Source: Candidatus Omnitrophota bacterium (GTDB lineage: Bacteria > Omnitrophota > Gorgyraeia > Zapsychrales > Zapsychraceae). Taken from it: a DNA stretch of 64,000 nucleotides. The DNA is taken from NCBI GenBank assembly GCA_020632515.1, contig JACKFK010000005.1:93327-157326 (forward strand), in the 5' to 3' direction. A model generated the notes under the pieces. It did not search any database. It worked only from the letters and a program-made list of their open reading frames with translations, and had not been told where the DNA came from. The translations under genes were made by a program, and so were the position numbers. Below, piece by piece: positions 9,959 through 30,654 of this stretch. Every line of letters begins with the position of its first letter. Position 1 is the stretch's first letter.

Positions 9959-10894
9959 CTACCTACCATTTTGTCTTTTGTCTCGTACGTAATTACTTTT
10001 TTCAAAGCTTTTCGCATATTTTTTTAATTCTGCCGCAACTTCTCCAATTTGAGCTACGTGCTTAATTGACTGATTGACATTACTTACTATTCCGATAGAA
10101 ACAGCTAAGAGGCCGAATCTTTGTTCATTTCCTTGACGATCTTTTCCTAATATATAACCACGTTCATAATCTTCCTCGTTATAAAAGGAAGGGACCTTAT
10201 CGTCGAAATCCTTAACAACATTTTCACATATATTATCTATTATGGCATCATCGGCGATAAAAACAAAATCATCTCCCCCTATATGACCAACAAATGTTTC
10301 TGCATTGCCGATTTTACGGGTATCCTGAATCAAAATACGCGCGAGTTCTTTAATAACGTCATCACCTTTTTCAAATCCATATTTATCATTGTAGGCTTTG
10401 AATTTATCGAGGTCGGCGTATCCAACCGCAAAAGGTTTTTTTTCATCAATATGTCGTTGAAATTCCTCAGTAATAGAAGTGTTCCCAGGCAAATGGGTGA
10501 GTGGGCTAGCATCTAGGCTGCGAATAGTTCTCTTTAGGATCATTTTGATTCTTGCTAATAACTCATCAGGAGCAAAAGGTTTAACAATATAATCATCAGC
10601 ACCAGCCTCTATTCCGCCAATTCGATCTTGAACTTCTCCTTTACCCGTTAACATAATGACGGGTATGTGGCGTAAGAGGATGTCTTGTTTTAATGCCTTA
10701 CAAAATTCGCGTCCGTTCATAACAGGCATCATGTAATCGCAGACAATCAGATCTGGAATTTTTTGTTGAACAGCGTCTAAGCCTTCTTTCCCATTGCCAG
10801 CTTGAGAAATTTCATAATATTCAGAAAGGGTTAGGTCTAAGACGTCTAAAATATCGGGGTCATCGTCAATTGTAAGTATTTTTTCTTTTTTCAT
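9959..10894 (-). CDS. Response regulator: REC domain fused to a GGDEF-family domain with a non-canonical GGDDF motif
   Basis: N-terminal REC (ILTIDDDPD..DLIVCDYMMPVMNG..LTGKG..K). C-terminal GGDEF-type palm (PLTHLPGN..YADLDKFKAYNDKYGFEKGDDVI..VGHIGGDDFVFI..SIGIV). No RxxD I-site lies upstream of the motif. Confidence 0.85.
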   Translation of the reverse strand: MKKEKILTIDDDPDILDVLDLTLSEYYEISQAGNGKEGLDAVQQKIPDLIVCDYMMPVMNGREFCKALKQDILLRHIPVIMLTGKGEVQDRIGGIEAGADDYIVKPFAPDELLARIKMILKRTIRSLDASPLTHLPGNTSITEEFQRHIDEKKPFAVGYADLDKFKAYNDKYGFEKGDDVIKELARILIQDTRKIGNAETFVGHIGGDDFVFIADDAIIDNICENVVKDFDDKVPSFYNEEDYERGYILGKDRQGNEQRFGLLAVSIGIVSNVNQSIKHVAQIGEVAAELKKYAKSFEKSNYVRDKRQNGR

Positions 10895-10898
10895 GTTT

Positions 10899-12401
10899 TC
10901 ACACTTTCTCAGGGTTATGTTCTATAGGGAGTGTAAAGTTAAAAGTGGAGCCTTTGTTAATTTCACTTGTGATCCAAATTTTTCCTCGATGGGCCTCAAC
11001 GATTTTTTTTACTAAAGCCAAGCCGAGGCCTGTTCCTTTAACGTTTTGGTTTATTTTGTTTTCTACTCGAAAAAATTCATCGAATAAACGGTCAATATCA
11101 TTTTTTTCAATACCGATGCCAGTATCTGAAACAGAAAAATTTACATGATTGTCTTCCAAAAGAGCTTCCACGCTTATTGTTCCATTTTCCGGGGTGAACT
11201 TGATAGCGTTGCTGATGAGGTTTATAAAAACTCTATCGACTTGACTTGAATCCAAATGCATTTCCGGTATGTCCGCAGACACTTTTGCGACCCAATTGAT
11301 TTTTTTATCTTTCATTTGAGGGGTCAATAGATCGGCAACATTATCGATGATTTTTTTAATGTTACATGTTGCGATATTCATTTCTGCTTTGCCAGATTCA
11401 ATCCGGGAAATATCTAAAAGATCATTAATCAGATTAACGAGATTGTCTGAATGGGTATTGATCTTTTGAAGTCTTTCTTTAACTGATAAAGGGATTTCTC
11501 CCAGCTTACCACTCATGAGAATAGCCGCATATCCTTTTATCGATGTCAGCGGAGTTCTTAACTCGTGGGAAACGGAAGAAATAAACTCAGACTTTGTTTT
11601 GCTGATATTTTGAACTTCCGTAAGAGCCTTTTCAAGCTGTTGAGTTCGTTCTTGTACTTTTTTTTCTAATTGTTGGCTGGAGCGGTAAACTTGTTCAAAC
11701 AGCCGAGCGTTTTCTAACGATTGACCAATTTGATTCGCGAGAACAGATATTAATTCTTCATCCCCTTCGGTAATAGGAGACGCGTTTGACTTATTGCCGA
11801 CAAAATATAGTCCAACCACGCTTGTTTGGCTAAGAATAGGTGATATGATGAAGTGGTTTACATGAAACAATTCATTAAGCGCGGTTTTTTTAATTCGAGC
11901 TGCGTTAATAGAAGTAATGCTTTTTCCGTTTTTAAGTGAATCCATAAGAGACAAATCTTTTTGAAGATTTGTTAGAATTAAAGTAACTTCATCGGGTGTA
12001 AAACCTAAAGAAATTTTTTTATTTAGTTCACCGGTTTCATGAGTCAGTAATATAAGGGTTTTTTCATAATTCACATTGGTTTTTAAGGTGTTTTCGAGAC
12101 GAAGAAACAGTTCATTTTCTTCTAAGGTTGTGCTAATCAACCGAGAGATTTTTTGAAGATTATCTAAGTCATGCAATCTTTTTTCAGATTCTTCCTGCGC
12201 TTTATTAAGTTCTAAATCTGTTTTTACAATGAGCTTTGCTTGTTCGTCTAAATCATTAAAGGAGTTTCTTAGTTTAATGAAAGAATTTTGAAGTGATGTG
12301 ATTTGTTCAGATTTAGCTATTAGAAAATAAGCTAAAACAAATAATATTATTACAGCGCTTGTGGAGATTATAAAGAAAAGGCTGATAGGAACATTTATCA
12401 T
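10899..12401 (-). CDS. Sensor histidine kinase (N-terminal TM, coiled coil, GAF-like region, HisKA, HATPase_c)
   Basis: H-box SHELRTPLTSIKGY. N, G1 and G2 boxes (NLISNAIKFT, DTGIGI, GTGLGLALV). One N-terminal hydrophobic helix. Confidence 0.9.
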   Translation of the reverse strand: MINVPISLFFIISTSAVIILFVLAYFLIAKSEQITSLQNSFIKLRNSFNDLDEQAKLIVKTDLELNKAQEESEKRLHDLDNLQKISRLISTTLEENELFLRLENTLKTNVNYEKTLILLTHETGELNKKISLGFTPDEVTLILTNLQKDLSLMDSLKNGKSITSINAARIKKTALNELFHVNHFIISPILSQTSVVGLYFVGNKSNASPITEGDEELISVLANQIGQSLENARLFEQVYRSSQQLEKKVQERTQQLEKALTEVQNISKTKSEFISSVSHELRTPLTSIKGYAAILMSGKLGEIPLSVKERLQKINTHSDNLVNLINDLLDISRIESGKAEMNIATCNIKKIIDNVADLLTPQMKDKKINWVAKVSADIPEMHLDSSQVDRVFINLISNAIKFTPENGTISVEALLEDNHVNFSVSDTGIGIEKNDIDRLFDEFFRVENKINQNVKGTGLGLALVKKIVEAHRGKIWITSEINKGSTFNFTLPIEHNPEKV

Positions 12402-13589
12402 TTAACAGATTCCTGTTATGACGATGCTTTCATTAAGTAAATAAGACTTGCGGATTTTTTCTACTGTTTGAAATGGAGCGATTTCTCCATTGGTATATAT
12501 TCCAAAAATAGGAACGGAAGCGCCAAAAATATTTCTGATTTCGAGAATTTCTTGGTAAGCCATACGTCCTAACAGTTTTAATCGGGCCATAGATTCAATA
12601 ATAAAAACAAGTTTGATGTCTTGACCATTTAAGGCGTCTTGCACTTCTTGAGCAGCTCGAATAGCAGCTTGTCTACAAAAATCTTTGTTGCCAATCATAA
12701 TATGTGCTTCAGCGCCCTGAGGAACATCCCCTTGACAAACTATACTGCCGTCATCAAGAAAATCAACAGCGTTTCTTAATAAATATTCATTGCTTCCTTC
12801 GACATAAATACCCAATGGATATAAGATTTCCATCATGCCTAAATTATGTTTTCTAAAATTTTCTACTTCTTCGCCAAAATATTCTGTATATAAGTGAGCA
12901 GCAGGCTTGTTGTCGATAATGTTTATGACATTCCCTGTCGATTTATTGATTATTCTTGGTTTTCCTAAAGGTTTCCATCCGTGATAAGAACATACACCCG
13001 TAACAGAATGCCCCCCTAAAACGACTCCTGCAGCTGCTTGACGAAGAACTTGGTCTTTATAAAAAAGGAAAGTGTTTTTAAAATGAAAATCATCACAATT
13101 TCCCCCGCCTATAATAGGAAACGCGTTTCCTAAAGACGCCTGCATGCCTTTTAAAAAGGTTGAAGTATTTTTTAATAATCCATCGATAAAAAATAAGAAT
13201 AAATGTCTATTATATTGACCATAATTTTCAAGACAATTGCGAGCAAATCTGTTTCCCGAATCCATTATATCATTTTGATCAATATTATTAATAACCCCTG
13301 CACCTATTTTTAAATCATCTGAAGTGATTAGAAGCAGGGATAAACCAGATGTTTTAATATTGTCGGAAAGGATAAGGCCGGCCGTTGAACACCCGATTAG
13401 ATTGCATTGATTAAGAATTTTTTGAAGAGGAGGGAGTACTAGTTTTGGATTATAATGGGCTGTAACAAAAACGAGAGCAATGTCAACACGCTCATGGTTT
13501 AACTGCGATGTCGCCATATTGCAAGCTTCTTTGCAAGCTGTTAAAGGGTCTAGATTATCGCTAAAGCCAATACTAATATATGTTGCCAT
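12402..13589 (-). CDS. FIST-domain signal-sensing protein (FIST_N + FIST_C)
   Basis: 395 aa. The N-terminal pattern (..DIALVFVTAHYNP..LIGCSTAGLI..) and the C-terminal pattern (..IFGIYTNGEIAP) are as in FIST proteins. Its stop codon directly abuts the kinase start codon. Confidence 0.8.
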   Translation of the reverse strand: MATYISIGFSDNLDPLTACKEACNMATSQLNHERVDIALVFVTAHYNPKLVLPPLQKILNQCNLIGCSTAGLILSDNIKTSGLSLLLITSDDLKIGAGVINNIDQNDIMDSGNRFARNCLENYGQYNRHLFLFFIDGLLKNTSTFLKGMQASLGNAFPIIGGGNCDDFHFKNTFLFYKDQVLRQAAAGVVLGGHSVTGVCSYHGWKPLGKPRIINKSTGNVINIIDNKPAAHLYTEYFGEEVENFRKHNLGMMEILYPLGIYVEGSNEYLLRNAVDFLDDGSIVCQGDVPQGAEAHIMIGNKDFCRQAAIRAAQEVQDALNGQDIKLVFIIESMARLKLLGRMAYQEILEIRNIFGASVPIFGIYTNGEIAPFQTVEKIRKSYLLNESIVITGIC

Positions 13590-20544: not shown

Positions 20545-21390
20545 ATGGATAAGAGGATGGTCTTTCTTTTTTGTTTTGTTATCGCCGGAGTTTTATTAGG
20601 CGTCGGCATCGTTGGGAAAGAAAACGGAGATCCAATTATGAAGGAACTTTTGAATCAACAACAAGTAGTTCTTTCATCTCAAAAAAGAATAGAACAGCGA
20701 ATAGGTTCAGAAGGGTCCGTTGGAGGGAACTCATTGTTTCTTATGAAACGATTGGATGAAGTTGAAGAAAGGCTGGATTTGCTGGAAGAAAGATTAGAAA
20801 ATGCCCCAGTACAGCCTCGGGCTGCAGCTGCGCAGGCGCCAACTCAGCCATCGGATGAATTTACAAAGGTTCATCAGATTGATGTTGCGCATTCTTATGT
20901 ATACGGTAATCCAAAGGCCCCAATTACAATTGTAGAATTTGTTGATTTTGAATGTCCTTTTTGCGCGCGGTTTCATGAGCCTATGGTAGCTGCAGTAAAC
21001 GCTTATCCGAATAAAGTTAATTATATTATTAAAAATTTTCCTTTATCTTTTCATCCTAATGCTCGGCCAGCAGCAAAGGCCGCTTTGGCAGCTGGAGAAC
21101 AAGGGAAATATTTTGAAATGGCTGATGAATTGTTGAAGAATGGGCGAGCGTTAGGTGAGGCAAAATATAAAGAATTAGCCCAGAACCTTGGATTAGATGT
21201 CGATAAGTTTATGAAGGACTATAGTGAAAAAACTCCTAAGTGGGAGGATATTATTCAGAAAGATATGAATTTAGGGCAAAAAGTGGAAGTGCGGGGAACG
21301 CCTACTTTTTATATTAATGGGCAAAAAACTGTTGCGAGGGATGTTGCCGCATATAAGGCTGAAATTGAGAAAATTCTGAATGGTAAATAA
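20545..21390 (+). CDS. DsbA-family thiol:disulfide oxidoreductase (membrane-anchored, coiled-coil linker)
   Basis: N-terminal TM helix and a thioredoxin fold with a CPFC active site (FVDFECPFCARFH). C-terminal GTPTFYING. Confidence 0.8.
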   Translation: MDKRMVFLFCFVIAGVLLGVGIVGKENGDPIMKELLNQQQVVLSSQKRIEQRIGSEGSVGGNSLFLMKRLDEVEERLDLLEERLENAPVQPRAAAAQAPTQPSDEFTKVHQIDVAHSYVYGNPKAPITIVEFVDFECPFCARFHEPMVAAVNAYPNKVNYIIKNFPLSFHPNARPAAKAALAAGEQGKYFEMADELLKNGRALGEAKYKELAQNLGLDVDKFMKDYSEKTPKWEDIIQKDMNLGQKVEVRGTPTFYINGQKTVARDVAAYKAEIEKILNGK

Positions 21391-21410
21391 ATAGACAAAG
21401 AAGTTAAAAA

Positions 21411-21443
21411 GCCCTTTGCTTATTTTCGCAAAGGGCTTTTTTT
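21411..21443 (+). terminator. Rho-independent terminator after the dsbA-like gene
   Basis: Perfect 9-bp stem GCCCTTTGC / GCAAAGGGC with an 8-nt loop, followed by TTTTTTT. Confidence 0.85.
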
Positions 21444-24467: not shown

Positions 24468-26354
24468 TTACTTTAGTTTAGAAGATAGTTCTTCAAATAA
24501 TAAATTTTCTTTTTCAAATGTTTGAATGTTTTCGTTCATTTTGATCTGTAAATGATCCGCAAGGGTGTTTAATGATGAAAAATTGTCTGTTATTTTTGTG
24601 TCCAGCTCTCGCAGTCCTTCAACCACTAATCCTTCAAAACCATAAATGTCCAAAGCTTTATAGCCATCCTTTTTTGTGATGACCCATTGCGGGAAAATTT
24701 TTTCAACTTCTTGAGCGATAAAACCAATTTGTTGACTTTTGCCGTATTTTTCGGGATCTTTCCAGTCAAAAGTGACAACACGTAAAGCGTTAATTTTATC
24801 AAGAGCCCCGGTAAGGGGTTGGATATCTCGTTTCAAGCGCATATCAGAAACAAAGTGAGCGTCTAGACAATTTCCACTGCCGGAACAAATATCCCCGGTA
24901 TCGCTGCGGATATAAGCGCCTGTATACAATTGTAAGGCTTTATTGCTGTCAGGAGAGTCTACGCCGATACCAACACGTGTGATACCTGCATCATCATGAA
25001 CCGTGATCACATTTCCAAAAGAGCCACCAAAATTATTGCGTAGTGCTAAGCGGTTTTCTCCTGCTCCAGCAAAACCAGTTGTAAGTTGCCAATCTAAATT
25101 ATCAGTATCTTGTAATTCCAAGTAGGGTTGGCTATGTTCTAAAGCTAAGATTTGATCCACAGAGTTTCCTGCGATATGTAAAGGGTAAGTCGGTGTAAAG
25201 TTGTTTCCTATTCCTACATATCGATTGGCTAAGTTAAAAATTAAATGATCGCTAAAAGATGATCCGGAATTTGGTTTCATTTGCATTTTAAAAAGATTGT
25301 TGTTTAAAATAAATTTTGCGCTTGCTGTTGTCACTGGATAATTCATTTCCAGAGAAGGAGATGAACTTTCCAGTTTTAGTGAGCCATTATCCGAAATATC
25401 AAGGGCAGAGTTAATGGGGGATGTTTTTGCGACTCCAATATTTCCATCTTTTTGAATCATTATACGATATTGTAAAGAGCCTTCATTGCCTCCATAGATT
25501 TTTAAAGCATTGTGAATTTGAGTAGGTCCGCTTTCCTGATCAACAGCCTGGAATTCCCAGATAGAGTGTGTACCAACAGCACCAGAAGATTCTTCCAGGC
25601 GAAGATTTGTTGAACCATCATCATCAAGTAGATGCAATTGGGTTTGAGGTGTTTTAGGTGTTGGATAACCACCAAAAGGCCCGATTCCCATTTTTCCAGG
25701 AACCCAGTTTATCATTTGATTGGCTGGATTGTCAGTGTATTCACCGGTTTGCATAAAGCTTAAAAAGAATCGAGAGCTTCCGATAGTTGTTGTTCTTCCA
25801 AAGGCCCAAAGATTGGTAAAGTTTCCACTGGTGTCAATTTCAGGAAAAAGAATTTGTGATTCTCCAACGCTGTCATTTTCTCCTACAAGAGTTAATGTCG
25901 GGTCAGAGGCAACTAGAAGGATATCTCCCGCAGTTTCGGAGCCACCATAGGATATAGAGGGCATTACGATATTCTTGTCCGAACGTATATGAAAAGGAGC
26001 TTGAGGAGTTGTTGTTCCAATACCAATTTTTATACTGGAATTAGTGTAATCTGTTAGAAAAATGTTATCACCTAATTGCCTCCAGATGCCAGGAACGGGG
26101 CCCCAAATACCAGTATTATTTCCTGAGCCATCATCATCACAATATTGTAATTCGCCATTGGGGTTTGTGTAAAATTCCCCAATATCACAGGAGCTGTTTA
26201 AAGAGGCTCCAAGAGGAGGAAGTCGTAATAAAGAATAGTTTCCTTTGGAGGAAGTATGATAAGTGCTTAAATTATAGGTGTCAGCATAAGCAAACATCGA
26301 GCAGAACCCTGTAACCAGCAATATCAGGATAACTTTTTGTATTAAAGATTTCAT
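24468..26354 (-). CDS. Secreted fibre-like protein, paralogue A: N-terminal Cys module, repeated GIG..P..LH units, C-terminal S74 intramolecular-chaperone domain, coiled-coil tail
   Basis: Signal peptide ..CSMFAYA|D. The C-terminal SDMRLKRDIQPL..L..VTFDWKD....IGFIAQEVEKIFPQWV matches the peptidase S74 / endosialidase-chaperone signature. The start ATG overlaps the stop of paralogue B (ATGA). Confidence 0.8.
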   Translation of the reverse strand: MKSLIQKVILILLVTGFCSMFAYADTYNLSTYHTSSKGNYSLLRLPPLGASLNSSCDIGEFYTNPNGELQYCDDDGSGNNTGIWGPVPGIWRQLGDNIFLTDYTNSSIKIGIGTTTPQAPFHIRSDKNIVMPSISYGGSETAGDILLVASDPTLTLVGENDSVGESQILFPEIDTSGNFTNLWAFGRTTTIGSSRFFLSFMQTGEYTDNPANQMINWVPGKMGIGPFGGYPTPKTPQTQLHLLDDDGSTNLRLEESSGAVGTHSIWEFQAVDQESGPTQIHNALKIYGGNEGSLQYRIMIQKDGNIGVAKTSPINSALDISDNGSLKLESSSPSLEMNYPVTTASAKFILNNNLFKMQMKPNSGSSFSDHLIFNLANRYVGIGNNFTPTYPLHIAGNSVDQILALEHSQPYLELQDTDNLDWQLTTGFAGAGENRLALRNNFGGSFGNVITVHDDAGITRVGIGVDSPDSNKALQLYTGAYIRSDTGDICSGSGNCLDAHFVSDMRLKRDIQPLTGALDKINALRVVTFDWKDPEKYGKSQQIGFIAQEVEKIFPQWVITKKDGYKALDIYGFEGLVVEGLRELDTKITDNFSSLNTLADHLQIKMNENIQTFEKENLLFEELSSKLK

Positions 26355-28246
26355 TTGAGCTTCCCCGTTTTTATATAATGATTTATTATAGTGTTGTTAT
26401 TTTTAATTTTTTCATTATTAATTTTAATTTCATTGTTAATTTTTTCTAATTGCTTTTGTAAAACGATAATTTGTTTTTGATGTGCAGAGGTTTTTTCTTT
26501 TATTTCTTGATCCAATAATTGAAAGCTTTTAATCGTGTGAGCTTTAAAAGTATGCAAGTGTAACTTTTTAGGTTGATTATTTTGTTCTATAACCCATTCG
26601 GGAAAGATTCTTTTTACTTCTTGGGCAATGAAGCCTGTTTGAAGTTGAGAGGATTTCATTTTAATAGGATCCTTCCAATAAAAATGAACAGGGTTTAGTT
26701 TAAGAAATTTATTTAAAGAGTTTTCCGTGTAGTTAGAAATATTTTTCTTAAGACGAAAATCTGATGTGTAAGTAGATGCGTTAAAGCATTGTAGAGAGGA
26801 GCAGATATCCCCATCTGATTTAAAATAAGAGCCACTTTCGAAATTTAAAACATTGGTTAAGGAGGCAGATCCAAGGCTGATTTCAGGATTAGGTGTGTTT
26901 TTCTTTACTGTCATGATTGTTCGGGTGGAGCCTCCATCTAAATAGCCGTTTCTTTGGATTCTGAAATTATCCCCGGATGTATTTAAATTCCAATTCATGG
27001 TTCCAACGCCTGGAGTTTGGTTATAATTTAGAGCTAGAGAAGGAGCTGTGTTTTCTATTCCTACGCTTTGGTTTTTTATATGCAAAGGATATGAAGGAGT
27101 TAAGCCTGAGTTTTTTGGAAAATTTAAGCCGATGTTATTGTTTGTGCTGATTAACATGGGTTCGATATTCCATGTGTTATCAAGCGCGGGATCGCTTTTA
27201 AAACGGAAAACAGTAGAGCCTCCCCAGTTATTGCAACAAGACATTGTATGGTTTATTTCTCCAACGCTTTCTTCTTGAAAAGTTACATATGAATTTGAAT
27301 TGACCATCAAAATGGTTCCGTTTCCTCCTACATGAAGTTGGGCTGTTGGTGTTGTGGTTGCAATGCCAACATTGCCATTTTCGGTGATTGTCAGTCTTTC
27401 TGATAAACTTCCTCCGGCCCCTCCCCATATAGAAAAATTATCAGGGGAGTTATGTGCACGTAATTCCCAAATAGAATCGGTATTATTTCTTTCTTGCAAA
27501 CGAACAGATGTTATACCATCGTTATTTTTAATATGGAGTAATTCTTGGGGGGAGCTGAAGCGCCCCATGCCGACATTTCCGTTTGGATTAATATACATAG
27601 ATAATCCCGCGTCATCATAATATTCATAAACAGATGAGTTATCTTTAAATCCAAAAAGGAATCCTCCTCCATCAGCAGTTGATTCCCTACCCCATCCCCA
27701 CATGTTGATAAAATCGCCGGGATTTCCGGGATCCGTGGCCTTAAAGACCTCTGTGTATTTGATAAGGGATTTGTTGTTGGCCTGGTTTGTGTTCATTAAA
27801 GCCATCGTGGCATAGTTTCCATGCAATACGATGTGTCCATCCATTTGTCCTCGAGTGGGAGATGCCCAATTTATTGGATTTCCTGAATTTAGATTGCTGG
27901 TTTTTATTTCAAAATCTTGATTAGGTGTGGATGTGCCAATTCCAATTTTATAAGTAGAAATGTCTGTGTTTGGAAAAATGCGGGTATTCTTCTGCGTCCA
28001 CAAACCATTTAAAGAGCCCCAAATGCCAGGAGATGAACAATAAGTTATTTTTCCAGATAAATTTACATAGATGCTACCAATTTCGCAAGACCCTGAATAA
28101 TCGCTTCGAGGAATAAGGTGAAGTTGATCGTAAGAGTTTTTTGGCGGAGAATAATATGTGGTCATAGACACCTGTCCTGCCAGTGCTGTTGAGGAAAATA
28201 GCAGGTTTAGAAGAAATAAATATAATATTTTATTTGGCTGCATCAT
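26351..28246 (-). CDS. Secreted fibre-like protein, paralogue B (same architecture)
   Basis: Signal peptide ..SSTALA|G. C-terminal SDFRLKKNISNY..L..VHFYWKD...TGFIAQEVKRIFPEWV. Start candidates are ATG 28246 or 28243, or TTG 28249. All of them overlap the 3' end of paralogue C. Confidence 0.8.
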   Translation of the reverse strand: MMQPNKILYLFLLNLLFSSTALAGQVSMTTYYSPPKNSYDQLHLIPRSDYSGSCEIGSIYVNLSGKITYCSSPGIWGSLNGLWTQKNTRIFPNTDISTYKIGIGTSTPNQDFEIKTSNLNSGNPINWASPTRGQMDGHIVLHGNYATMALMNTNQANNKSLIKYTEVFKATDPGNPGDFINMWGWGRESTADGGGFLFGFKDNSSVYEYYDDAGLSMYINPNGNVGMGRFSSPQELLHIKNNDGITSVRLQERNNTDSIWELRAHNSPDNFSIWGGAGGSLSERLTITENGNVGIATTTPTAQLHVGGNGTILMVNSNSYVTFQEESVGEINHTMSCCNNWGGSTVFRFKSDPALDNTWNIEPMLISTNNNIGLNFPKNSGLTPSYPLHIKNQSVGIENTAPSLALNYNQTPGVGTMNWNLNTSGDNFRIQRNGYLDGGSTRTIMTVKKNTPNPEISLGSASLTNVLNFESGSYFKSDGDICSSLQCFNASTYTSDFRLKKNISNYTENSLNKFLKLNPVHFYWKDPIKMKSSQLQTGFIAQEVKRIFPEWVIEQNNQPKKLHLHTFKAHTIKSFQLLDQEIKEKTSAHQKQIIVLQKQLEKINNEIKINNEKIKNNNTIINHYIKTGKLK

Positions 28247-30233
28247 CAAGATCCCTAAACGATTGAATTAGTTTTTCTTGTTTATTTAATAATTTATTTT
28301 GTTGTTTAAATATTTTTTCTTGATCATTTATGGATTCTTCCAGCGTTAATAGTTTTTCGGTTAAGTTGGTATTGCGACTCTCTAAAGTTGAATATATCTC
28401 CTGAATGCTTTTCACGGTTAAACTTTCAAATCCTTTTGGGTGAACGATCTTGTGTTCAAGGCCATTGTGAGAAATCCATTCAGGAAATATTTTCTCTACA
28501 TCCTGGGCAATCCATCCTATTTGTTTGTCTTTTTTATTTGAATGATCTTCAGGGGTTTTCCAATAAAATTCAATACCCTTTAATTTTAAAAGTTTATTTA
28601 AGGCGCCTTTTAGAGGAGTGATGTCCTTTTTTAACTTGTAGTCAGAAGGGCCGTAATCATCATTTAAACATGTGTTTGCAGAAGAACAAACGTCTCCGTC
28701 GCTTTCAATTCGTGCGGCTGAGCCACCAATAGGAACGTGAAGAGGGTATGAAACTGTTCCGGTTGTCCCTATTCCCATATAGATTTGAGAACCTGATCCG
28801 TTATCTTGCAAGATTAGACGGTTTGTAAAAGCTCCACCGTTGGAATCTTGGAAAATGAGTTGTATTTTTCCGCCAACGTAATCAGCTGTAGCTTTCCAAT
28901 CATAACTGTCAGTGTCTAGAAAGAGAAGACCAGGTTGCATGTTAACCGCGAGCCCTTCAATACCAATGCTGCTTCCTTTAATATGTAAATTGTATGCGGG
29001 TATATCGGTGTCAGCTGTTGGTTGGAAAATAATGTTGCCGGTGGAGCCAGCTATAGACATTAAAAGATCATCAGTATAAGATCCATCTAAATCGATATCG
29101 GTTCCGAAAAGTAGATTGCCAGTTAAGTTAAAAATATTGAAATCATTTTGTAATAGAGTGGTATCAACAAATTCTAAATTTGTATTTGTATTTTCAAGCT
29201 GTATACCTCCATTGTTGATTTGGAGTTGAGCCGAGAGAGGTGTTGTTCCCGTAACACCAATACCCATGTTACCGGCGGAGTTAATTGTTAGTCGGTTATT
29301 CAGAGAGCCAGAGGCTCCTCCATATATAGCGAATCCATCTGTAAGTGATGCGGGGACATTATCAAGGGCTTTGAAATCCCATATAGCATCGGTCCCGGTT
29401 GTTTCTTCCAGGCGAAGAGAAGTGTCAGGACCTTTTATATTATTTAAATGGAGTTCAGCTTCAAGAATAATATCAGTAGCTGTTTTATAAGTTCCAATAC
29501 CAATCTGGCCGCTAGGATCAAAGATTGTTGTGTGAGAGCAGGCAAACCAATATCCTGCGCTTGTAATAAAACAATCAGTAGTGGAGCTTGGTGACTGTAT
29601 ATATGAAAGTGTTAAAAGATTAAAAAAAGAAGAAGTGTTTCGCCAAAAAGCCCATTGATTTTGATAGTTACCCGAAGAAGCTAGCTCTGAAAATTGAATG
29701 ACTGCTTGTGCTGAGCTTGTATCATCTCCAATAAAATTAAAAGCAGCGTTAGGGTTTGTTATTAATAAATTCGCGTTTAAAGGATATCCTCCCAAAGCTG
29801 TTGTAATCGATCCCCAATTGATTGAGGGCATGCTTTGATCATGTATATGAATTTCTGCCTGGGGTCCTGAAGTTCCAATTCCAATTTTTAAATTAGAGTT
29901 TGTGGCTGTTTGGTTAGGATAAAGTGATGTTGTGCCTGAATTTGCAGTCCATATGTTGGATAAATATCCCCAGGATCCTGTTCCATTTCCAGAACCATCA
30001 TCTAAACAATAGCGAACGATATCTGGCGATTCAACGGTGATTGCTCCGATTTTGCAAGGATTGGAAACGGAATTTTGTGGCGATAAGAGCAAACTTTCAT
30101 AATCACCATAGGGGGCTGGATAAAAGGTGGATAAATTTGTAGAGTCAGCCCAAAGGGGATTATTTAGAGAAAATAGAAAAGCAGTATACAGAAAAGACGT
30201 AAATATAAATTTTCTAAAGTGTATTTTCATCAC
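28230..30233 (-). CDS. Secreted fibre-like protein, paralogue C (first gene of the operon)
   Basis: Signal peptide ..NNPLWA|D. C-terminal SDYKLKKDITPL..L..IEFYWK....IGWIAQDVEKIFPEWI, then a coiled coil. The start is GTG 30233 or ATG 30230. No Shine-Dalgarno sequence is visible. Confidence 0.8.
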   Translation of the reverse strand: MMKIHFRKFIFTSFLYTAFLFSLNNPLWADSTNLSTFYPAPYGDYESLLLSPQNSVSNPCKIGAITVESPDIVRYCLDDGSGNGTGSWGYLSNIWTANSGTTSLYPNQTATNSNLKIGIGTSGPQAEIHIHDQSMPSINWGSITTALGGYPLNANLLITNPNAAFNFIGDDTSSAQAVIQFSELASSGNYQNQWAFWRNTSSFFNLLTLSYIQSPSSTTDCFITSAGYWFACSHTTIFDPSGQIGIGTYKTATDIILEAELHLNNIKGPDTSLRLEETTGTDAIWDFKALDNVPASLTDGFAIYGGASGSLNNRLTINSAGNMGIGVTGTTPLSAQLQINNGGIQLENTNTNLEFVDTTLLQNDFNIFNLTGNLLFGTDIDLDGSYTDDLLMSIAGSTGNIIFQPTADTDIPAYNLHIKGSSIGIEGLAVNMQPGLLFLDTDSYDWKATADYVGGKIQLIFQDSNGGAFTNRLILQDNGSGSQIYMGIGTTGTVSYPLHVPIGGSAARIESDGDVCSSANTCLNDDYGPSDYKLKKDITPLKGALNKLLKLKGIEFYWKTPEDHSNKKDKQIGWIAQDVEKIFPEWISHNGLEHKIVHPKGFESLTVKSIQEIYSTLESRNTNLTEKLLTLEESINDQEKIFKQQNKLLNKQEKLIQSFRDLDDAAK

Positions 30234-30269
30234 AATAAAAAAGCCTATTCTCTTTATCGAAGAATAGGC
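30234..30269 (-). terminator. Intrinsic terminator inside the 5' leader of the fibre operon (putative riboswitch expression platform)
   Basis: On the minus strand, a perfect 9-bp stem GCCUAUUCU / AGAAUAGGC (30269-30261 / 30251-30243) with a 9-nt loop, then UUUUUUAUU running directly into the GUG-AUG start. Confidence 0.65.
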
Positions 30270-30284
30270 ACAAGTCCTTTTTGC

Positions 30285-30363
30285 GGCAACTGGCTGCCCT
30301 TTTTACGGGCCCTATAGTTTTGTGCCCCATTCTTACGAATGGTTTACCTTTTACACAACTACC
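30285..30363 (-). promoter_or_regulatory. Candidate GEMM-I (c-di-GMP-I) riboswitch aptamer
   Basis: The minus-strand RNA GGUAGUUGUGUAAAAGGUAAACCAUUCGUAAGAAUGGGGCACAAAACUAUAGGGCCCGUAAAAAGGGCAGCCAGUUGCC contains the GG(C/U)AAACC block, a hairpin CCAUUC-GUAA(GNRA)-GAAUGG, and a ..GCACAAAAC.. junction. It also has a second hairpin (GCCC-GUAAAAA-GGGC) and a 3' AGCC..GUUGCC that can pair with the 5' GGUAGUUG. The 36-nt core (30351-30316) matches 27/36 positions of the V. cholerae Vc2 aptamer as I remember it. Confidence 0.55.
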
Positions 30364-30382
30364 AAATTTTTATCTTGGTGAA

Positions 30383-30411
30383 AGTATAGCATATACATAA
30401 AGGGTATACAA
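30383..30411 (-). promoter_or_regulatory. Sigma70-like promoter for the riboswitch/fibre operon
   Basis: Minus strand: TTGTAT (30411-30406), 17 nt, TATACT (30388-30383). The predicted transcription start site is about 13 nt upstream of the aptamer. Confidence 0.45.
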
Positions 30412-30470
30412 AAAAATAACCAAATTTATGAAAGCGTTTGCTTTTTAAGCTTTGGGGTGATTATTTGCGC

Positions 30471-30499
30471 TTGACAAGGCGGAATAGGGGTGATATATT
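30471..30499 (+). promoter_or_regulatory. Sigma70-like promoter of the pyrR-pyrB-pyrC operon
   Basis: TTGACA (30471-30476), 17 nt, TATATT (30494-30499). Confidence 0.55.
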
Positions 30500-30511
30500 T
30501 TCATAAATTAA

Positions 30512-30619
30512 CCTTTAATTCGGTCCTGCGAGATCGGCAAGGATTTTAACGTGAAATATAAATATTTGGTGTATAGAGATTTTCAGCTCGCCTTTAAATG
30601 AAAAGGGCGGGCTTTTTTA
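30512..30619 (+). promoter_or_regulatory. PyrR-type transcription attenuator (binding-loop hairpin plus terminator)
   Basis: Hairpin CCUUUAAUUCGGUCCUGCGAGAUCGGCAAGG (30512-30542) has a UCC.G.GAG core resembling the PyrR binding loop. Downstream is an imperfect GC-rich hairpin GCTCGCCTTT / AAAGGGCGGGC (30586-30612) followed by TTTTTT. It lies immediately upstream of pyrR. Confidence 0.55.
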
Positions 30620-30654
30620 TTAAGGTTTTTTATGTAATAAAAGGACAAGTATAA

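Follow-up and report, generated by a model that had tools for sequence, protein, structure and literature searches.

The leader of a three-gene operon for probable secreted fibre proteins, on the minus strand of a 64-kb stretch of Candidatus Omnitrophota DNA (64,000 nucleotides, hereafter the window), carries a class I c-di-GMP riboswitch. The element is a genuine member of its class and ordinary in kind, and we hold with high confidence that it is a canonical c-di-GMP sensor whose most likely role is to switch transcription of the operon OFF. Both the class and the mechanism are already textbook matter; the finding is of value for annotation and for the context that it supplies. A particular operon of an uncultured and little-understood phylum is linked by it to c-di-GMP signaling, and an uncharacterized family of secreted fibre proteins is marked out as belonging to a c-di-GMP regulon; its members share a new N-terminal domain, and a phage-type S74 chaperone is present in some. 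Our literature search, which was limited and therefore says little, found no account of Omnitrophota with c-di-GMP riboswitches, nor of such riboswitches ahead of genes for tail-fibre-like or S74 proteins.

The whole 64-kb window was searched with cmscan against the 4227 families of Rfam 15. The only riboswitch match was at positions 30281 to 30357 of the minus strand, a 77-nt element that matched the c-di-GMP-I-GGC family RF03167 with 63.4 bits (gathering score 59, E = 1.3e-12). A second family of the same clan, CL00126, also exceeded its own gathering score on this element, although the clan filter displays the top family only. The score for the canonical family RF01051 comes from a 5'-cut copy, as the full-length value is masked by the clan filter: on L024, a Logan contig from the same organism that begins inside the aptamer, RF01051 is the winning family with 43.3 bits, where gathering requires 35. 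The leader in L024 equals that of the window except for one C-to-U change, which turns a G-C pair into a G.U pair. When the window element itself was shortened at its 5' end, RF03167 was still the top family. No match to the class II family (RF01786) was found in 30150 to 30480, even at E ≤ 10. The preliminary description had proposed, from the letters alone, that the leader of the downstream gene holds a GEMM-I (c-di-GMP-I) aptamer and, behind it, an intrinsic terminator, and had named a covariance-model search as its check; the score above gathering, together with a conserved leader in a related genome, bears this reading out. The covariance model also supersedes the 27/36 match to Vc2 given there.

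The family model gives the fold in detail. P1 pairs UGUG (30357-30354) with CGCA (30285-30282), P1a (30347-30322) consists of a GU..AC segment and a CCAUUC-GUAA-GAAUGG hairpin, an AA junction holds the equivalent of A47 at 30321, and P1b spans 30319-30288. The equivalents of G20 and C92 lie at 30348 and 30286, and the interhelical C and G at 30324 and 30294, all on the minus strand. Standard pairing is present at all 21 of the 21 aptamer pairs. In type 1 GEMM RNAs, a GNRA tetraloop on P1a docks into a receptor in P1b. The window has such a tetraloop, GUAA, on P1a, and a P1b receptor would not be recognizable from sequence; the P1a of the related locus L001 is long and ends in GGUA, and hence is not that of a type 1 GEMM RNA. 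The RNA quoted in the earlier reading and its CCAUUC-GUAA-GAAUGG hairpin are indeed found on the minus strand, and the extent given for the aptamer was right in sequence but 4 nt short at its 3' end, which reaches 30281. The P1 that had been drawn by hand, GGUAGU with GUUGCC, is wrong: the family model has UGUG/CGCA and assigns the AGUU for which the hand-drawn P1 and P2 competed to the 3' strand of P1b and the GC to the junction that carries C92.

In Vc2, the ligand is contacted by G20, A47, and C92 (PMC4744006, PMC5888326), and the equivalents in Vc1 are G12, A39, and C104, with C36 pairing with G90 (PMC4744006; PMC5888326). A Watson-Crick C-G pair between the helices is universal in GEMM RNAs (PMC4744006). 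In both Vc2 and Vc1, 24 nt separate this bulged C from the G20 equivalent before it and 3 nt from the A47 equivalent after it. Using the Rfam alignments and these spacings, we placed the pocket of the window aptamer at G10, A37, and C72 and the interhelical pair at C34 and G64 (numbered within the aptamer), and the distances equal those of Vc2 and Vc1 (G20 to C44, 24 nt; C44 to A47, 3 nt). P1a has C34 in its GGC bulge, P1b has G64 in its AG bulge, and C72 sits in the GC junction before the 3' strand of P1; the interhelical C and G are found in L001 as well. The element thus resembles Vc2 and Vc1 (RF01051) in its P1, GNRA-looped P1a, and P1b, in its GGYAAACC and ACRCAAAR junctions, in G20, A47, C92, and the interhelical C-G at equal spacings, and in its position in a 5' leader ahead of an expression platform. 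It differs from RF01051 in being short (77 nt) with a minimal P1b, for which reason it scores better on RF03167, in a P1a closing pair that is U-A rather than C-G, in a GGC rather than a GAC bulge, and in its host and targets, which are Candidatus Omnitrophota and secreted fibre proteins with an S74 chaperone domain.

The top Rfam label has to be weighed against this pocket. RF03167 is the best-scoring family both for the window, where its 63.4 bits exceed the gathering score of 59, and for L001, and the window element shares the fold and the short P1b of that family, which would make it a member of an orphan class sensing something other than c-di-GMP. The consensus sequences of the two families, ACGCAAAgC for RF01051 and ACGCGAAgC for RF03167, differ in their conserved core at the A47 column only, and there the window (CACAAAAC) and L001 (GCGCAAAGC) both carry the A of the canonical family and not the G of the variant. 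In the variant described by Weinberg et al. 2017, the letters GGC presumably stand for G20/G47/C92, which fits the comparison of the consensus sequences. With this diagnostic column being A in both genomes, we rejected the assignment to the GGC variant and consider a ligand other than c-di-GMP on that ground very improbable; the RF03167 label is probably a by-product of the short P1b of that model and no ligand prediction. The variants that recognize c-AMP-GMP (GEMM-Ib) have the same fold and typically a G20 to A change. That a nucleotide of their ligand pocket is altered is documented (PMC9481103). The G20 column is G in the window and L001, and GEMM-Ib was accordingly rejected, as was class II in view of the missing RF01786 match at E ≤ 10; both searches had been suggested in the preliminary description. 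From its G20/A47/C92 pocket, canonical G/A/C, the aptamer is predicted to bind c-di-GMP. The top label within a clan, here an orphan GGC variant, can therefore mislead for an aptamer with a canonical pocket, and pipelines that follow it would misassign the ligand class, which matters for automated prediction of regulons and ligands.

The leader is conserved beyond the window. The PyrG encoded in the window is 100% identical to a protein of an NCBI "Candidatus Omnitrophica bacterium" MAG, and its next relatives, at 79 to 85%, are nearly all from Omnitrophota. A genome scan with the three fibre paralogues returned two syntenic loci, L001 (labeled Planctomycetales) and L016 (Omnitrophota), in which pyrR, pyrB, and pyrC are 66 to 76% identical to those of the window (69 to 76% in L001 alone) and diverge from paralogues in tandem with the same N-terminal domain as the window proteins. 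With the window aptamer as its sole input, a covariance model located an aptamer at the same place in L001 (L001:2639-2783; 43 bits, E = 6e-10 in 771 kb). Compared with the window, L001 keeps all 21 of 21 pairs, which are standard in every sequence, and 7 of them are changed on both sides (2 in P1, 4 in P1a, and 1 in P1b). In this sample of three sequences from two lineages, as much covariation was reached by 2 of 500 shuffles, and registers slid along the alignment gave 0 to 1. The comparison with homologous leaders that had been proposed at the outset thus finds the aptamer conserved in the L001 operon with compensatory changes. The hairpins of L001 are lengthened by 36 nt and 41 nt, and these long extensions explain why its Rfam score of 41 bits falls below gathering. 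They lie at L001 2655-2702 and 2716-2768 as near-perfect hairpins on P1a and P1b, both with GCUUCG...CGAAGC, and have the look of a related palindromic element inserted into the two hairpin tips.

Outside L001 and the same-organism copy L024, the aptamer was not recovered. Exact-sequence look-ups with a fibre protein and PyrB of the window gave no hits. The syntenic L016 lacks it by both Rfam and the window-aptamer model, and that model found nothing in about 100 other loci. Beyond L001 and L016, the loci returned by the genome scan with the three paralogues match the S74 domain only, and a metagenome scan returned 80 loci, all through the ubiquitous S74 domain and none with the aptamer. In a word-indexed database, a profile of the N-terminal domain gave one protein, with no aptamer upstream, and no aptamer was found with the family members P0154, P0014, P0156, P0157, and P0159, which lie on short contigs. 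The riboswitch is therefore no general companion of S74 proteins or of the N-terminal domain. Its absence from L016 is also the one observation in favor of a chance or decayed resemblance without regulatory function, to which we give a next to negligible probability: an E-value of 1e-12 speaks against chance, the element has the right strand and the right place between promoter and gene, and compensatory changes have accumulated in a genome whose neighboring pyr proteins are only 69 to 76% identical.

The aptamer occupies the sense strand of the 5' leader, with a candidate promoter on one side and the operon's first gene on the other, within a 463-nt intergenic gap that separates the divergent pyrR (start 30697, plus strand) from the ORF at 28230-30233. 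On reading the sequence, we located the candidate promoter at 30383-30411 of the minus strand, with TTGTAT at 30411-30406, a 17-nt spacer, and an extended -10 element, TGcTATACT, at 30391-30383, in which TG-C precedes TATACT. These hexamers and their spacing are those given in the preliminary description. TTGTAT agrees with TTGACA at only 3 of 6 positions, and this weak -35 accounts for the absence of the promoter from our consensus scan. From these motifs, transcription is predicted to start near 30376. The candidate promoter and the divergent pyrR promoter (30471-30499, plus strand) stand back to back, which is a sensible arrangement. The distance of about 13 nt previously given between promoter and aptamer is obtained only by counting from the presumed start site; it is 19 nt from the -10 element to GGUAG and 25 nt to the start of the aptamer in the covariance model. 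Read along the minus strand, a leader of about 25 nt is followed by the 77-nt element (30357-30281), a spacer of 11 to 12 nt, the terminator, U6, AUU, GUG, and AUG.

The terminator was identified by a terminator scan at 30237-30269 of the minus strand. Its stem, GCCUAUUCU(U)...(G)AGAAUAGGC, comprises 9 Watson-Crick pairs and one U.G pair around a 7-nt loop (30269-30243) and runs into the six U residues at 30242-30237. Only three stems of at least 10 pairs occur in 20 kb, this one among them, and it contributes about -13.5 kcal/mol, taken as the energy of the aptamer-plus-terminator state minus that of the aptamer alone. No gene lies upstream on the minus strand, which makes this terminator a leader attenuator. 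The 15 nt earlier reported between GUUGCC and the terminator was reproduced. The perfect 9-bp stem with U6 described before stands for its 9 Watson-Crick pairs and is extended by the U.G pair to 10, and the terminator does abut the start of the gene, although not at the 2 to 5 nt first given, as the U-tract ends 3 nt before the GUG and 6 nt before the AUG.

A competing pairing links the terminator to the aptamer. The segment AAGAAUGGGGCACAA (30320-30334, minus strand), which comprises the 3' strand of P1a with the interhelical C, the closing pair, and A47, is complementary to UUGUGCCUAUUCUU (30260-30273, minus strand), which consists of UUGU, the 4 nt just ahead of the terminator, and the 10-nt 5' arm of the terminator, GCCUAUUCUU. 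The duplex of 30334-30320 with 30273-30260 has an energy of -16.9 kcal/mol, compared with -9.5 ± 2.5 kcal/mol for shuffled sequences, of which 10 of 2000 were as good; this antiterminator is known from one species, the window sequence alone. It uses bases that the folded aptamer requires and so excludes the aptamer fold. In snapshots of the growing transcript, no fold has a lower energy than the antiterminator (-29.3 kcal/mol) in the interval after synthesis of the terminator's 5' arm and loop and before that of its 3' arm. The consensus aptamer with the terminator has -26.5 kcal/mol, a value that contains neither ligand nor tertiary energy. For the full-length leader, the minimum-energy fold contains the terminator and has -36.2 kcal/mol, versus -29.3 kcal/mol for the best antiterminator. 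Since the terminator fold is the more stable one at full length, ligand-free read-through must be kinetic.

These alternative structures suggest how the switch would operate. Without ligand, UUGUGCCUAUUCUU would pair with AAGAAUGGGGCACAA inside the aptamer to form the antiterminator, which would sequester the 5' arm of the terminator and allow the operon to be transcribed. With c-di-GMP bound, P1, P1a, P1b, and the junctions would be locked and the 5' arm left free to form the 10-bp terminator with U6, and transcription would halt 3 to 6 nt before the start codon. We infer from this arrangement that the switch is OFF. c-di-GMP-I riboswitches of both the ON and the OFF type are known, and high c-di-GMP usually induces adhesins, so that OFF control of surface fibres would run in a non-textbook direction. 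That usual induction would suit an ON switch, in which binding of c-di-GMP stops termination, and so would the finding that the terminator is thermodynamically favored even without the aptamer fold. The layout of the leader argues the other way. The aptamer, which reaches to 30281, and the terminator, which begins at 30269, have no bases in common, so the bound aptamer cannot block the terminator, and the only strong alternative partner of the terminator's 5' arm is made up of bases that the folded aptamer needs. The platform of L001 reads OFF as well: its P1 is CCAUUG/CAAUGG, and the CAAUGG 3' strand overlaps a GGAG Shine-Dalgarno sequence 7 nt before the AUG, from which an OFF switch is predicted there too; no terminator was found in the L001 leader. 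On this evidence an ON switch is distinctly unlikely.

The proposed OFF switch has counterparts in Firmicutes. Cd1 of Clostridioides difficile is a terminator-type c-di-GMP-I riboswitch. Bc1 of Bacillus thuringiensis is another (PMC11218506). The window element resembles the two in the order of aptamer and rho-independent terminator and in the ligand-dependent premature termination that it would bring about. It differs from them in having a single terminator whose U-tract ends 3 to 6 nt before the start codon, and in an antiterminator that would use the internal 3' half of P1a and the junction and not the 3' strand of P1. Related genomes carry one aptamer on two platforms, a terminator in the window and Shine-Dalgarno sequestration in L001.

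The position of the terminator directly ahead of the start codon had been read earlier as a sign of dual control, in which the hairpin also gates translation at a start that lacks a Shine-Dalgarno sequence behind the U-tract. The AUG at 30230 is backed by a public gene call (P0001) and a good signal peptide, and the GUG at 30233 is in frame with it. No Shine-Dalgarno-like core lies within -18 to -4 of the start of this first fibre gene. The geometry would suit a second layer of control: the stem ends 12 nt ahead of the AUG and the U6 tract 6 nt ahead of it, everything upstream of the AUG is unpaired and rich in A and U when the antiterminator forms, and -39 to -13 is a hairpin in the terminator fold. 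We surveyed 52 non-overlapping ORFs of at least 150 codons, taking for each the best Shine-Dalgarno match at any start within its first 50 codons. Any 4-mer core was found in 30 of the 52, a 5-mer such as AGGAG in 10, and no core at all in 22; as this procedure is biased towards finding such sites, at least 22 of 52 lack one. The premise that most other genes in the window have clear AGGAG-type sites therefore falls, and with it the use of the start as a sign of dual control, as starts of this kind are common and imply no second layer by themselves. Starts that are A/U-rich and lack a Shine-Dalgarno sequence are ordinary here, and a missing one needs no special explanation. Moreover, only the margin of the ribosome footprint would be reached by a hairpin ending 12 nt upstream, a normal GGAG precedes the orthologous gene in L001, and nothing was found that points to a translational effect apart from termination. 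We therefore regard translational gating by the terminator hairpin as unlikely.

The operon controlled by the predicted OFF switch consists of three overlapping paralogues on the minus strand. The first gene, taken from the ORF list at 28230-30233, encodes 666 residues from the AUG at 30230 and matches PF13884 (E = 7.6e-15). Its product begins with a signal peptide (MKIHFRKFIFTSFLYTAFLFSLNNPLWA/DS) and a conserved N-terminal domain and continues through a beta-rich body to a C-terminal Peptidase_S74 intramolecular chaperone and then a coiled coil. The second paralogue (26351-28249, about 630 residues) overlaps the end of the first gene, the third (24468-26354, 628 residues) overlaps the end of the second by 4 nt, and both have the same architecture. 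The three are 31 to 35% identical to one another. An AlphaFold model of the third paralogue reached a pLDDT of 62.5, with only the S74 domain and the C-terminal helix being confident, and a fold search returned only the phage K1F endosialidase chaperone 3gw6, with weak E-values. NCBIfam has no model for the fibre proteins. The products are secreted and probably trimeric fibre proteins. As the flanks are housekeeping genes (the pyr operon, glmS, and a methyltransferase), the locus is not a prophage.

The N-terminal domain of these proteins is an undescribed one for which neither Pfam nor NCBIfam has a model. It is encoded at 29826-30146, 27875-28174, and 25965-26279 of the minus strand and occurs also in L001, L016, and L025. 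About 100 residues long and with two cysteines, it follows the motif T.YYP.P.G.Y..LRL.P...C.IG..Y...G.L.YC...G.W...G.WTQ...IYP.DT...KIGIGT..P. We found it in 306 cluster representatives at E ≤ 1e-10 and in 3123 at E ≤ 1e-3, nearly always directly after a signal peptide. Its partners vary and include the S74 chaperone, a beta-roll, and very long repeat proteins; in L001 and L016, beta-roll repeats take the place of S74. A broader picture can be sketched from these parts, namely a c-di-GMP-controlled fibre switch in Omnitrophota in which low c-di-GMP would induce a set of paralogous, self-cleaving, tailspike-like fibres carried on an undescribed secretion or anchor domain, perhaps for attachment to other cells, with the hairpin before the start codon adding a translational layer. 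Taken as a whole, we think this unlikely to be correct.

The fibre operon diverges from pyrR-pyrB-pyrC, and a second leader regulator stands on the other side of the same intergenic region. At 30471-30621 of the plus strand lies a PyrR attenuator for these three genes, which scored 51.3 bits on RF00515, just under the gathering score of 54; a strong terminator at 30585-30613 is part of it. The site ahead of it (TTGACA, 17 nt, TATATT, with TG) is the most promoter-like in 20 kb. Two divergent leader regulators therefore lie back to back. The PyrR site of L016 is above gathering, with 64 bits. Farther away, a minus-strand operon at 9959-13589 encodes a FIST-domain sensor (12402-13589), a histidine kinase (10899-12401), and a response regulator with REC and GGDEF-like domains (9959-10894). 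This REC-GGDEF-like protein, 20 kb from the riboswitch, provides a c-di-GMP context, and it may be inactive as a cyclase, its signature being GGDDF and not GG(D/E)EF.

The GC skew is strongly positive throughout the 64 kb (0.10 to 0.30 in each 4-kb segment) at a G+C content of about 36 to 37%. Genes lie mostly on the plus strand, and the fibre operon is among the few minus-strand blocks. Finally, a 14-bp palindromic hairpin between A5 and T5 was found at 21406-21441, after a DsbA-like gene (20545-21390). It is among only three strong terminator-like stems between 20 and 40 kb and looks like a bidirectional intrinsic terminator.
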